A stretch of DNA of 3,359 nucleotides. It comes from Escherichia coli (lineage in GTDB: Bacteria > Pseudomonadota > Gammaproteobacteria > Enterobacterales > Enterobacteriaceae). The stretch is taken from NCBI RefSeq assembly GCF_003334385.1, contig NZ_QOWN01000094.1; one strand, given 5' to 3'. Positions 1 to 3,359 of this stretch are shown here, one piece after another. Within the stretch, counting starts at the first letter, position 1. Each line of letters opens with the position of its first letter. Made by a program: the position numbers and the translations under genes. Under the pieces are notes generated by a model. It did not search any database. It saw only the letters and a list, made by a program, of their open reading frames with translations, and was not told the origin of the DNA.

Positions 1-1980
1 GGGGTAAGCGGTGAGGCTCAGATTGCGTCCATCAGCCAGAGTGTGGCGCGTTTCTCCTCTGCATCCGGCGTGGAGGTGGACAAGGTCGCTGAAGCCTTCG
101 GGAAGCTGACCACAGACCCGACGTCGGGGCTGACGGCGATGGCACGCCAGTTCCATAACGTGACGGCGGAGCAGATTGCGTATGTTGCTCAGTTGCAGCG
201 TTCCGGCGATGAAGCCGGGGCATTGCAGGCGGCGAACGAGGCCGCAACGAAAGGGTTTGATGACCAGACCCGCCGCCTGAAAGAGAACATGGGCACGCTG
301 GAGACCTGGGCAGACAGGACAGCGCGGGCATTCAAATCCATGTGGGATGCGGTGCTGGATATTGGTCGTCCTGATACCGCGCAGGAGATGCTGATTAAGG
401 CAGAGGCTGCGTTTAAGAAAGCAGACGACATCTGGAATCTGCGCAAGGATGATTATTTTGTTAACGATGAAGCGCGGGCGCGTTACTGGGATGATCGTGA
501 AAAGGCCCGTCTTGCGCTTGAAGCCGCCCGAAAGAAGGCTGAGCAGCAGACTCAACAGGACAAAAATGCGCAGCAGCAGAGCGATACCGAAGCGTCACGG
601 CTGAAATATACCGAAGAGGCGCAGAAGGCTTACGAACGGCTGCAGACGCCGCTGGAGAAATATACCGCCCGTCAGGAAGAACTGAACAAGGCACTGAAAG
701 ACGGGAAAATCCTGCAGGCAGATTACAACACGCTGATGGCGGCGGCGAAAAAGGATTATGAAGCGACGCTGAAAAAGCCGAAACAGTCCGGCGTGAAGGT
801 GTCTGCGGGCGATCGTCAGGAAGACAGTGCTCATGCTGCCCTGCTGACGCTTCAGGCTGAACTCCGGACGCTGGAGAAGCATGCCGGAGCAAATGAGAAA
901 ATCAGCCAGCAGCGCCGGGATTTGTGGAAGGCGGAGAGTCAGTTCGCGGTACTGGAGGAGGCGGCACAACGTCGCCAGCTGTCCGCACAGGAGAAATCCC
1001 TGCTGGCGCATAAAGATGAGACGCTGGAGTACAAACGCCAGCTGGCTGCACTTGGCGATAAGATCACGTATCAGGAGCGCCTGAATGCGCTGGCGCAGCA
1101 GGCGGATAAATTCGCACAGCAGCAACGGGCAAAACGGGCCGCCATTGATGCGAAAAGCCGGGGGCTGACTGACCGGCAGGCAGAACGGGAAGCCACAGAA
1201 CAGCGCCTGAAGGAACAGTATGGCGATAATCCGCTGGCGCTGAATAACGTCATGTCAGAGCAGAAAAAGACCTGGGCGGCTGAAGACCAGCTTCGCGGGA
1301 ACTGGATGGCAGGCCTGAAGTCCGGCTGGAGTGAGTGGGAAGAGAGCGCCACGGACAGTATGTCGCAGGTAAAAAGTGCAGCCACGCAGACCTTTGATGG
1401 TATTGCACAGAATATGGCGGCGATGCTGACCGGCAGTGAGCAGAACTGGCGCAGCTTCACCCGTTCCGTGCTGTCCATGATGACAGAAATTCTGCTTAAG
1501 CAGGCAATGGTGGGGATTGTCGGGAGTATCGGCAGCGCCATTGGCGGGGCTGTTGGTGGCGGCGCATCCGCGTCAGGCGGTACAGCCATTCAGGCCGCTG
1601 CGGCGAAATTCCATTTTGCAACCGGAGGGTTTACGGGAACCGGCGGCAAATATGAGCCAGCGGGGATTGTTCACCGTGGTGAATTTGTCTTCACGAAGGA
1701 GGCAACCAGCCGGATTGGCGTGGGGAATCTCTACCGGCTGATGCGCGGCTATGCCACCGGTGGTTATGTCGGTACACCGGGCAGTCTGGCTGACAGCCGG
1801 TCGCAGGCGTCCGGGACGTTTGAGCAGAATAACCATGTGGTGATTAACAACGACGGCACGAACGGGCAGATAGGTCCGGCTGCTCTGAAGGCGGTGTATG
1901 ACATGGCCCGCAAGGGTGCCCGTGATGAAATTCAGACACAGATGCGTGATGGTGGCCTGTTCTCCGGAGGTGGACGATGA
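1..1980 (+). CDS. H: Tail tape measure (length-determining) protein gpH, 5'-partial; C-terminal 659 aa plus stop
   Basis: Frame 1 is open from nt 1 to the TGA at 1978..1980, so the gene enters from upstream of the window; the GTG at 43 used by the ORF track is an internal codon, not the start. The translation (…VARFSSASGVEVDKVAEAFGKLTTDPTSGL… through …MRDGGLFSGGGR) matches my recollection of lambda gpH. It has a long Ala/Gln/Lys/Glu/Arg-rich helical region followed by a Gly-rich C-terminal region, typical of tape measure proteins. 660 codons in the window is consistent with an 853-aa gpH starting 193 codons upstream. Confidence 0.94.
   Translation, partial: GVSGEAQIASISQSVARFSSASGVEVDKVAEAFGKLTTDPTSGLTAMARQFHNVTAEQIAYVAQLQRSGDEAGALQAANEAATKGFDDQTRRLKENMGTLETWADRTARAFKSMWDAVLDIGRPDTAQEMLIKAEAAFKKADDIWNLRKDDYFVNDEARARYWDDREKARLALEAARKKAEQQTQQDKNAQQQSDTEASRLKYTEEAQKAYERLQTPLEKYTARQEELNKALKDGKILQADYNTLMAAAKKDYEATLKKPKQSGVKVSAGDRQEDSAHAALLTLQAELRTLEKHAGANEKISQQRRDLWKAESQFAVLEEAAQRRQLSAQEKSLLAHKDETLEYKRQLAALGDKITYQERLNALAQQADKFAQQQRAKRAAIDAKSRGLTDRQAEREATEQRLKEQYGDNPLALNNVMSEQKKTWAAEDQLRGNWMAGLKSGWSEWEESATDSMSQVKSAATQTFDGIAQNMAAMLTGSEQNWRSFTRSVLSMMTEILLKQAMVGIVGSIGSAIGGAVGGGASASGGTAIQAAAAKFHFATGGFTGTGGKYEPAGIVHRGEFVFTKEATSRIGVGNLYRLMRGYATGGYVGTPGSLADSRSQASGTFEQNNHVVINNDGTNGQIGPAALKAVYDMARKGARDEIQTQMRDGGLFSGGGR
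1966..1973 (+). promoter_or_regulatory. Shine-Dalgarno sequence for M (GGAGGTGG), inside the 3' end of H
   Basis: GGAGG at 1966..1970 is read directly, 6 nt upstream of the M ATG at 1977. The site lies within H coding sequence, as expected for translationally coupled genes. Confidence 0.6.
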
Positions 1981-2306
1981 AGACCTTCCGCTGGAAAGTG
2001 AAACCCGGTATGGATGTGGCTTCGGCCCCTTCTGTAAGAAAGGTGCGCTTTGGTGATGGCTATTCCCAGCGAGCGCCTGCCGGGCTGAATGCCAACCTGA
2101 AAACGTACAGCGTGACGCTTTCTGTCCCCCGTGAGGAGGCCACGGTACTGGAGTCGTTTCTGGAAGAGCACGGGGGCTGGAAATCCTTTCTGTGGACGCC
2201 GCCTTATGAGTGGCGGCAGATAAAGGTGACCTGCGCAAAATGGTCGTCGCGGGTCAGTATGCTGCGTGTTGAGTTCAGCGCAGAGTTTGAACAGGTGGTG
2301 AACTGA
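1977..2306 (+). CDS. M: Minor tail protein gpM (tail tip assembly), 109 aa
   Basis: ATG at 1977 overlaps the H stop (ATGA, 1977..1980). GGAGG at 1966..1970 lies 6 nt upstream. The translation MKTFRWKVKPGMDVASAPSVRKVRFGDGY…EFEQVVN matches lambda gpM in sequence and length, and sits in the expected position between H and L. Confidence 0.93.
   Translation: MKTFRWKVKPGMDVASAPSVRKVRFGDGYSQRAPAGLNANLKTYSVTLSVPREEATVLESFLEEHGGWKSFLWTPPYEWRQIKVTCAKWSSRVSMLRVEFSAEFEQVVN
2293..2298 (+). promoter_or_regulatory. Shine-Dalgarno-like sequence for L (AGGTGG), inside the 3' end of M
   Basis: AGGTGG at 2293..2298 is read directly, 7 nt upstream of the L ATG at 2306. Confidence 0.5.
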
Positions 2307-3004
2307 TGCAGGATATCCGGCAGGAAACACTGAATGAATGCACCCGTGCGGAGCAGTCGGCCAGCGTGGTGCTCTGGGAAATCGACCTGACAGAGGTCGG
2401 TGGAGAACGTTATTTTTTCTGTAATGAGCAGAACGAAAAAGGTGAGCCGGTCACCTGGCAGGGGCGACAGTATCAGCCGTATCCCATTCAGGGGAGCGGT
2501 TTTGAACTGAATGGCAAAGGCACCAGTACGCGCCCCACGCTGACGGTTTCTAACCTGTACGGTATGGTCACCGGGATGGCGGAAGATCTGCAGAGTCTGG
2601 TCGGCGGAACGGTGGTCCGGCGTAAGGTTTACGCCCGTTTTCTGGATGCGGTGAACTTCGTCAACGGAAACAGTGACGCCGATCCGGAGCAGGAGGTGAT
2701 CAGCCGCTGGCGCATCGAGCAGTGCAGCGAACTGAGCGCGGTGAGTGCCTCCTTTGTACTGTCCACGCCGACGGAAACGGATGGCGCTGTTTTTCCGGGA
2801 CGTATCATGCTGGCCAACACCTGCACCTGGACCTATCGCGGTGACGAGTGCGGTTATAGCGGTCCGGCTGTCGCGGATGAATATGACCAGCCAACGTCCG
2901 ATATCACGAAGGATAAATGCAGCAAATGCCTGAGCGGTTGTAAGTTCCGCAATAACGTCGGCAACTTTGGCGGCTTCCTTTCCATTAACAAACTTTCGCA
3001 GTAA
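2306..3004 (+). CDS. L: Minor tail (tail tip) protein gpL, 232 aa, with C-terminal cysteine cluster
   Basis: ATG at 2306 overlaps the M stop by 1 nt (TGATG, 2304..2308). AGGTGG at 2293..2298 lies 7 nt upstream. The translation MQDIRQETLNECTRAEQSASVVLWEIDLTEVGGERYFFCNEQ…FLSINKLSQ matches lambda gpL. Stop is TAA at 3002..3004. Confidence 0.93.
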   Translation: MQDIRQETLNECTRAEQSASVVLWEIDLTEVGGERYFFCNEQNEKGEPVTWQGRQYQPYPIQGSGFELNGKGTSTRPTLTVSNLYGMVTGMAEDLQSLVGGTVVRRKVYARFLDAVNFVNGNSDADPEQEVISRWRIEQCSELSAVSASFVLSTPTETDGAVFPGRIMLANTCTWTYRGDECGYSGPAVADEYDQPTSDITKDKCSKCLSGCKFRNNVGNFGGFLSINKLSQ

Positions 3005-3009
3005 ATCCC

Positions 3010-3359
3010 ATGACACAGACAGAATCAGCGATTCTGGCGCACGCCCGGCGATGTGCGCCAGCGGAGTCGTGCGGCTTTGTGGTAAGCACGCCGGAGGGGG
3101 AAAGATATTTCCCCTGCGTGAATATCTCCGGTGAGCCGGAGGCGTATTTCCGTATGTCGCCGGAAGACTGGCTGCAGGCAGAAATGCAGGGTGAGATTGT
3201 GGCGCTGGTCCACAGCCACCCCGGTGGTCTGCCCTGGCTGAGTGAGGCCGACCGGCGGCTGCAGGTGCAGAGTGATTTGCCGTGGTGGCTGGTCTGCCGG
3301 GGGACGATTCATAAGTTCCGCTGTGTGCCGCATCTCACCGGGCGGCGCTTTGAGCACGG
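3010..3359 (+). CDS. K: Tail tip assembly protein gpK, 3'-partial (first ~116 codons); N-terminal MPN/JAMM-type domain
   Basis: ATG at 3010..3012 lies 5 nt after the L stop, and the frame stays open to the window end. It is absent from the ORF track only because it has no in-window stop. The translation MTQTESAILAHARRCAPAESCGFVVSTPEGERYFPCVNISGEPEAYF…LVHSHPGGLPWLSEADRRLQVQSDLPWWLVCRGTIHKFRCVPHLTGRRFEHG matches lambda gpK and contains an H-x-H-x7-S-x2-D motif. No clear Shine-Dalgarno precedes it, so the exact start is less certain than for M and L. Confidence 0.88.
   Translation, partial: MTQTESAILAHARRCAPAESCGFVVSTPEGERYFPCVNISGEPEAYFRMSPEDWLQAEMQGEIVALVHSHPGGLPWLSEADRRLQVQSDLPWWLVCRGTIHKFRCVPHLTGRRFEH

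Follow-up and report, generated by a model that had tools for sequence, protein, structure and literature searches.

Start site of gene K in a lambda-type tail operon and its possible translational coupling to gene L

Coupled gene pairs and the H-M-L-K genes

The closest described systems are the ATGA- and TGATG-coupled gene pairs of E. coli (Huber et al. 2019, PMC6728339; 2023, PMC10666635). In this organism, stop-to-start distances of −8 to +10 nt are treated as predictive of termination-reinitiation, and experiments showed that reinitiation requires overlaps or very short spacers (PMC10666635). A synthetic-operon study, as cited in PMC10666635, found an approximately tenfold loss at a spacer of just +3 nt. 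When the Shine-Dalgarno (SD) sequence was removed, reinitiation fell by 60–90% in three of five tested pairs, and in one pair it was lost entirely (PMC6728339).

The window (the whole stretch of DNA analysed, 3359 bases) shares 99.2% nucleotide identity with phage lambda along its full length (~27 substitutions), and its best matches are E. coli prophages (99.5% identity). Gene order and junction sequences are identical to those of H, M, L and K in the late operon of lambda (tail tip assembly). The window is the H-M-L-K portion of a lambda-type tail operon in an E. coli prophage. It is not lambda itself: it carries a G at position 3144 that is absent in the lambda sequence J02459, which leaves K open from ATG 3010. 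Lambda late genes are carried on one mRNA, and phage structural genes are packed stop to start and translated in series. This anatomy of back-to-back tail genes is already well known and represents ordinary biology. The search for related loci returned only loci of at least 94% identity; therefore, wider diversity was drawn from annotated phage records.

All features described here are on the plus strand. The 3' part of gene H (tail tape measure; 1–1980, from the list of open reading frames and the J02459 annotation) enters from upstream of the window. Gene M (1977–2306) encodes a distal tail protein of 109 residues (PHROG 14, minor tail protein, 8.7e-42) and gene L (2306–3004) a tail hub protein of 232 residues (PHROG 18, 1.9e-152). 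[quoted passage not shown]

The M start overlaps the H stop by the sequence ATGA (1977–1980; ATG at 1977–1979, TGA at 1978–1980), which corresponds to a distance of −4 nt. M and L share TGATG (2304–2308; M TGA at 2304–2306, L ATG at 2306–2308; −1 nt). Both overlaps lie exactly where the original prediction had placed them, and its SD-like sites are indeed embedded in the respective upstream gene. The SD of M, GGAGGTGG, is located within the end of H, 6 nt before the ATG (1966–1973); its duplex with the 3' end of 16S rRNA has a calculated energy of −14.0 kcal/mol, which is in the top 0.5% of window positions, and the site is annotated as a ribosome binding site in OM418625. The SD of L, AGGTGGTGA, is located within the end of M (2293–2301; −10.2 kcal/mol, top 3% of window positions). 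Almost all of 39 lambda-clade loci retain ATGA and GGAGGTGG, with a degenerate SD in two divergent loci, and TGATG and AGGTGGTGA are invariant in 40 such loci. Distances of −4 and −1 nt with an embedded SD are the two commonest configurations among the coupled E. coli pairs. The H/M and M/L arrangement is the standard one where successive genes of a single late mRNA are translated in a coupled manner.

The L-K junction is different. The K start codon (ATG 3010–3012) follows the L stop codon (TAA 3002–3004) after a non-coding spacer of 5 nt, ATCCC (3005–3009). The distance of +5 nt is, like those of H/M and M/L, inside the range of −8 to +10 nt and thus within the coupling-competent range of the E. 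coli pairs. In contrast to these pairs, which mostly lose 60–100% of reinitiation when the SD is removed, and in contrast to M and L, the K start has no SD. The region upstream of ATG 3010 has no complementarity to the anti-SD (+0.6 kcal/mol), and 97% of window positions bind better. The values for the starts of G, H, M, L, I and J range from −6.9 to −14.0 kcal/mol, so that K is the sole SD-less start of seven lambda tail genes. Both the position of the K ATG 5 nt past the L stop and the lack of a GGAGG-like element ahead of it had been read from the sequence before, and both are correct. The SD-less ATG is invariant in 84 loci, whereas the spacer preceding it varies (4, 5 or 10 nt in close relatives). 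In 15 phage lineages, some of them with good SDs, the distance from L stop to K start is −1 to +19 nt. The short L-K gap is conserved across the lineages, and only the lambda clade has lost the SD.

The translation start of gene K

Three K starts are now found in databases, corresponding to window positions 3010, 3118 and 3154. PGAP and PV340536 annotate K from ATG 3010, and KT232076 uses GTG 3118. J02459, its RefSeq copy, Swiss-Prot (TIPK_LAMBD) and several phage records let K begin at Met49, 48 codons downstream of ATG 3010 (ATG 3154–3156; J02459 position 14276).

The start at ATG 3010, on which the original prediction was built, has strong support from the domains and structure of K, from sequence conservation and from the distribution of polymorphic sites over codon positions. 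K cannot begin further upstream because the K frame contains a TAA 7 codons before this ATG (2986–2988) and no ATG, GTG or TTG in between. The N-terminus predicted from ATG 3010 is (M)TQTESAILAHAR. Pfam PF14464 (Prok-JAB) covers residues 3–104 of K (1e-13; model positions 3–112 of 114), and the solved JAB protein of PDB entry 2kks aligns to residues 7–105, including the catalytic Glu19. In the AF2 model, residues 1–40 have a pLDDT of ~90 and form a helix (3–15) and two strands (19–27 and 30–35); the best fold matches are Rpn11, CSN5 and JAMM1. The residues of the JAMM motif E...HSH...S..D (Glu19, His68, His70, Ser78 and Asp81) are invariant in 14 homologues. PF00877 (NlpC/P60) is found at residues 111–224 of the full-length lambda K of PV340536 (8.2e-13), a region beyond the end of the window. 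The architecture of the 247-residue reading frame is that of the tail assembly protein gpK (TAPK) with JAB and NlpC/P60 domains. The L-K-I-J synteny is present, with I and J following K in relatives.

The first 48 residues of K are conserved and contain the catalytic Glu. Among the phage records listed in a tblastn search with K, nearly all alignments begin at residues 1–8, down to 27% identity. Polymorphic sites at the first, second and third codon positions number 16, 6 and 34 in codons 1–48 and 21, 11 and 43 in the downstream codons. Thus, the first 48 codons show the same third-position bias as the rest of K and evolve as coding sequence. GTG 3079 and GTG 3118 were discarded as starts, having a weak SD or none; either would cut off conserved N-terminal residues.

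The classical start at Met49 would give a K protein beginning with MSPEDWLQAEMQGEIVALVH... (MSPEDW...). This start is an artefact that goes back to the lack of one base in the 1982 lambda sequence. The G at 3144 (reference position 14266) is absent only in J02459, its RefSeq copy NC_001416 and two records with reference-identical coordinates (OR974322 and OR474059). It is present in all other 80-plus loci examined, including several lambda stocks that were sequenced anew (KT232076, PV340536, DE3 and imm21). Since the base is missing, ATG 3010 is out of frame in J02459 and a K of 199 residues was annotated. No report of a G insertion at 14266 was found in a literature search.

It is very doubtful that K is nevertheless made from ATG 3154, alone or as a shorter isoform beside the 247-residue protein. 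The in-frame ATG is preceded by a perfect GGAGG (3138–3142; −9.5 kcal/mol), which serves as the K ribosome binding site in some lambda records, and the Met49 start has been adopted by the databases named above; that annotation, however, stems from the missing G. The distance of 11 nt from GGAGG to ATG is long, and the GGAGG is accounted for by conserved Pro-Glu-(Ala/Asp/Glu) codons (Pro-Glu-Ala in this K). Furthermore, a protein initiated here would lack the helix and the catalytic Glu of the JAB fold as well as two of its core strands. The ATG itself is not conserved: 7 of 84 close loci have CTG or ATC as codon 49, and Salmonella-type homologues have an Ile there. Most likely, ATG 3154 merely encodes an internal Met of K. 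Scarcely likely, too, is that lambda proper produces from GGAGG and AUG 3154 a second, N-terminally truncated K that lacks a working JAB domain and keeps NlpC/P60. Lambda does obtain two products from one gene elsewhere (S105/S107, C/Nu3 and G/GT). If K were such a case, the SD-less upstream start would be a throttle that sets the ratio of its two products.

Initiation at the SD-less K start

The mRNA around the K start is predicted to be unstructured (approximately 2980–3040, ~44% GC). The mean unpaired probability around ATG 3010 is 0.63 compared with a background of 0.40 ± 0.10 (98th percentile of the window). The GC content is 0.44 against 0.58 for the locus, and the stretch is rich in A and C. 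A consensus promoter scan of the window yielded one promoter-like site (0.8 expected) and none at the junctions. Terminator-like motifs numbered three (1.3 expected), and each of them lies within L rather than at a junction. A hairpin that hides the K start until it is melted by ribosomes translating L was considered as a basis for coupling (the classic unmasking mechanism) and rejected; no such hairpin is present and the region is the most open one of the window.

Termination-reinitiation of K from L, as proposed in the original prediction, is plausible from the sequence. We lean towards the reading that most initiation at ATG 3010 occurs by reinitiation after termination on L, by an inefficient SD-less route that keeps K below L. 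M and L begin on strong SDs inside the preceding gene, with starts overlapping the preceding stops. At the K start, ribosomes or 30S subunits coming directly from termination on L would re-start at the nearest AUG (3010), and the absence of local structure would aid this step. Such an SD-less re-start is expected to be inefficient, and K would be made at a fraction of L. A low output would suit an assembly protein not found in the virion; gpK is undetected in virions (PMC10721106).

The main rival is initiation at ATG 3010 independently of L, in which free 30S subunits bind the open, A/C-rich site (standby or S1-assisted) and the proximity of the L stop reflects genome compaction. This is possible but rather unlikely. 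It is a real rival because no other part of the window is as open as the region of the K start, where no hairpin masks the ATG and GC content falls, and SD-independent initiation is known from unstructured starts that likewise have no SD. SD-less reinitiation, on the other hand, is usually poor in E. coli (PMC6728339), which speaks for the independent route as well. Against it, the K start of the close relative PhiR5_1, which is SD-less with a 10-nt spacer, is not notably open (unpaired probability 0.36, 46th percentile), and all lineages examined, even those with good SDs, keep L and K a short distance apart. Amber mutants of L and K form separate complementation groups and complement each other. 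This argues against an absolute requirement of K synthesis for ribosomes that translate L to its end, and agrees with independent initiation. Unlike a plain SD-independent start, that of K is additionally positioned 5 nt from an upstream stop, and the two routes are therefore inseparable from sequence alone. Neither the K start nor its coupling to L is treated in the lambda CRISPRi and CRISPRi-ART papers.

The joining of L and K into a fusion protein by programmed frameshifting or readthrough has a practically negligible probability and was rejected. G and T of the same operon are joined by a programmed −1 frameshift, K is in the −1 frame relative to L, and some database proteins combine domains of L and K. 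However, the K-frame TAA 7 codons upstream of the start leaves an overlap of only ~14 nt, which contains no slippery heptamer of the type X XXY YYZ, and spacer indels of 1 and 5 nt alter the frame relation among close relatives. None of the database proteins examined is an in-frame fusion at the junction: three are internal deletions joining L to K at short similar motifs (e.g. ...GDECG|FVV...), and in the fourth the K sequence precedes the L sequence.

Implications for lambda K

J02459, NC_001416 and Swiss-Prot TIPK_LAMBD still carry the K of 199 residues, which is devoid of a third of the JAB domain; the catalytic Glu is in the missing part. This short K (NP_040598.1) is cited in at least one recent expression-library study. 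For cloning or modelling gpK, or for interpreting its proposed deubiquitinase-like processing of gpI, the form of 247 residues is to be used. If SD-less reinitiation from L is true, the L-K junction would be a simple case of an operon that holds a non-structural assembly enzyme at a low dose compared with the structural protein encoded next to it.

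Gene content and junctions

Over its full 3359 bases the window is 99.2% identical to phage lambda and to many lambda-like phages, and prophages of complete E. coli genomes match it at 99.5% identity. It is not lambda itself, from which about 27 substitutions separate it. Of 5426 complete E. coli genomes, 4384 contain related sequence (median among these, 2 copies), and in 3677 a match spans at least 80% of the window. Lambda annotation and open reading frames assign the terminal 1980 bases of H (tape measure, stop at 1980), M (1977–2306), L (2306–3004) and the initial 350 bases of K. 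PHROG searches are consistent with these names. A Gly/Ala/Ser-rich low-complexity segment of H (1520–1640, ..GSIGSAIGGAVGGGASASGG..) is located in the C-terminal region, the part of gpH in which cleavage to gpH* has been reported (PMC12617516). Two long minus-strand ORFs, 2204–3016 (270 aa, opposite L/M) and 1573–2238 (221 aa, opposite H/M), are probably by-products of GC-rich sense-strand codon usage.

The junctions of the original prediction proved exact to the base. The H stop and M start share ATGA (1977–1980), the M stop and L start share TGATG (2304–2308), and the L stop codon TAA (3002–3004) is followed by a 5-nt spacer, ATCCC, and ATG 3010. The strength of the Shine-Dalgarno (SD) elements was calculated by folding the 16S rRNA 3' end with the 17 nt that precede each start. 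The SD-like elements proposed for M and L, both inside the upstream gene, form strong duplexes of -14.0 kcal/mol (GGAGGTGG, 1966–1973, top 0.5% of window positions) and -10.2 kcal/mol (AGGTGGTGA, 2293–2301, top 3%), respectively. ATG 3010 has no SD-like element, as had been predicted: its duplex amounts to +0.6 kcal/mol and 97% of window positions are stronger. In the full lambda tail region the starts of G, H, M, L, I and J range from -6.9 to -14.0 kcal/mol, with K as the sole exception. The H/M and M/L junctions and their SDs are preserved in ~40 lambda-clade loci, with a degenerate H/M SD in two divergent loci. Thus, the junction and SD pattern of H/M/L/K is confirmed and is beyond chance; the genes, their junctions and the principle of coupling are already known. 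A terminator-like hairpin at 2956–2982 (CGTCGGCAACTTTGGCG followed by a T-rich tail) is found within the end of L, ~30 nt 5' of its stop. This is a consensus match only, and the region has 3 such sites (1.3 ± 1.0 expected).

The start of gene K

In reference lambda (J02459, NC_001416) K is annotated at 14276–14875 with 199 aa, starting at window ATG 3154, which is codon 49 (Met49) of the ORF from ATG 3010. ATG 3010 is the first possible K start because the K frame contains a TAA at 2986–2988, 7 codons upstream, and no ATG, GTG or TTG in between. From here K comprises 247 aa, and this form is already called by PGAP in E. coli prophages. Pfam assigns Prok-JAB to residues 3–104 (model positions 3–112 of 114) and NlpC/P60 to residues 111–224, a domain arrangement described in 2006 for the TAPK family (PMC1779556). 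The alignment with the solved JAB protein 2kks begins at residue 7 of K and takes in the helix at the N-terminus as well as the catalytic Glu, which lies within AESCG in K and within NEACG in 2kks. In the AlphaFold model of K, confidence is highest at residues 1–40 (pLDDT ~90), with a helix at 3–15 and strands at 19–27 and 30–35. Fold comparison of the model ranks the JAMM enzymes Rpn11, CSN5 and P. furiosus JAMM1 highest. Judged by this model, a start at Met49 would strip the helix and both strands from the core.

Residues I8, L9, H11, A12, A16, P17, E19, S20, C21 and G22 are shared by all of 14 homologues with identities as low as 67%. A tblastn search matched 1752 records, and among the phage matches listed nearly all alignments start at K residues 1–8, down to 27% identity. 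In 69 distinct lambda-clade sequences, the polymorphic sites at codon positions 1, 2 and 3 number 16, 6 and 34 in codons 1–48 and 21, 11 and 43 in codons 49–116. The same third-position excess in both segments supports a start at ATG 3010. Codon 49 itself varies: of 84 close loci, 7 have CTG or ATC at this position, and several homologues from Salmonella, Citrobacter and Stx phages encode Ile. Seven independent lines (domain, 2kks, AlphaFold, conservation, polymorphism, codon 49 and upstream stop) point to ATG 3010, which we regard with high confidence as the main K start. The K gene call of the original prediction is correct in this respect, and the reference lambda annotation is the odd one out. 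ATG 3154 is preceded by a perfect GGAGG (3138–3142, -9.5 kcal/mol, 11-nt spacing), labelled as the K ribosome-binding site in one lambda imm21 record. As sole K start Met49 is very unlikely, given the loss of the JAB core, the conserved N-terminus and the replacement of codon 49, and its use as an additional, minor start in lambda proper is highly improbable.

Record alignment revealed that J02459 lacks one G at window 3144 (between J02459 14266 and 14267) that is present in the window and in other lambda sequences. Its absence shifts ATG 3010 out of the reading frame of the remaining K sequence. Among the loci examined the gap occurs only in J02459, its RefSeq copy, OR974322 and the unverified OR474059, the latter two with coordinates identical to reference lambda. 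All other 80-plus loci carry the G, including several re-sequenced lambda stocks (KT232076, PV340536, DE3 and lambda imm21), HK629 and an E. coli prophage. Thus, the missing G, which frameshifts the first 48 K codons, accounts for the 199-aa K of GenBank, RefSeq and Swiss-Prot (TIPK_LAMBD). PGAP annotations of E. coli genomes and the record PV340536 start K at ATG 3010, KT232076 starts it at GTG 3118, and J02459, DE3, HK629 and imm21 start it at ATG 3154. A recent expression-library study still cites the short form, NP_040598.1, as gpK, and no paper stating a correction of the frameshift was found in the literature searched. The explicit reconciliation, tracing the textbook lambda K to a one-base gap in J02459, is a useful outcome.

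Gene I of lambda, 3' of the window, has two database starts (positions 5151 and 5250 of the lambda locus L005). Classically, I begins at an ATG with an SD of -9.4 kcal/mol, giving 223 aa and overlapping K by 103 nt; the start in PGAP and PV340536 is an SD-less GTG (+0.4) overlapping the K stop and giving 190 aa. The 33 additional residues of the longer form (MAATHTLPLASPGMARICLYGDLQRFGRRIDLR) may belong to the ubiquitin-like domain.

The L–K junction in related phages

The K ATG does not vary within the lambda clade, but the spacer has 5 nt (TAAATCCCATG), 4 nt or 10 nt (TAAATCCCGGTTTATG). No SD before K was found in any of the lambda-clade spacer versions (best duplex -2.3 kcal/mol). Thirteen lineages at greater distance (Morganella, mEp515, Burkholderia, Pseudomonas, Vibrio, HK97, mEp043, phiKO2, SSL-2009a, HK639, Jk06, KP36 and slyngel) have -1 to +19 nt between the L stop and the start of the K homologue, with +1 or +2 in most of them. 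Nine of these have a respectable K SD (-6.0 to -9.2 kcal/mol), located within the end of L but in the spacer for Jk06. Comparison of these lineages with the lambda clade shows that the adjacency of L stop and K start is ancestral and conserved, and loss of the SD is derived in the lambda clade.

Three features rule out an L–K fusion by frameshifting: a stop in the K frame, indels in the spacer and no slippery site. The database proteins examined that carry both domains are not junction fusions: in three of them an internal deletion has brought L and K sequence together, and in the fourth K sequence precedes L sequence. In the hybrid proteins P0020, P0048 and P0051 the deletion lies between similar short motifs, ..RGDECGY.. 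of L (~2840–2850) and ..AESCGFV.. of K (~3065–3075). The hybrids resemble degenerate alleles of prophages or artefacts of assembly rather than programmed fusions.

Initiation at M, L and K

By analogy with coupled gene pairs of E. coli, M and L can be regarded as textbook coupled starts, as they share with these pairs an overlap (-4 for M, -1 for L) combined with a strong internal SD. These overlaps rank as the two most frequent arrangements in E. coli, for which experiments demonstrated tight coupling in most tested pairs (PMC6728339). Reinitiation is predicted at -8 to +10 nt, with an efficiency that drops steeply with distance (PMC10666635); the L/K distance of +5 nt is within this range.

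The main rival to feeding of K from L is a purely independent initiation without SD. The K start is exceptionally unstructured: the surrounding 31 nt have a mean unpaired probability of 0.63 compared to 0.40 ± 0.10 for the window (98th percentile), and no hairpin masking the start was found. Such openness is a signature of starts that can recruit ribosomes without SD. Furthermore, in classical lambda genetics L and K are separate complementation groups defined by amber mutants, and this speaks against K depending absolutely on L being translated to its end. Independent initiation is also favored by experiments in E. coli, where removal of the SD reduced reinitiation by 60–90% in three of five pairs and abolished it in one (PMC6728339). 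However, in PhiR5_1, an SD-less relative with a 10-nt spacer, the K start is not especially open, and therefore open mRNA cannot wholly explain the K starts of the lambda clade. Purely independent initiation is considered rather unlikely.

We lean, by a little better than even chances, towards a reading in which ribosomes terminating on L would supply most K initiation, the absent SD would render this process inefficient and some ribosomes would load independently on the open K site. The outcome would be a low K:L ratio. gpK is needed for tail-tip assembly yet absent from virions (PMC10721106, PMC12617516), and a low K:L ratio would fit such an assembly-required, non-virion protein.
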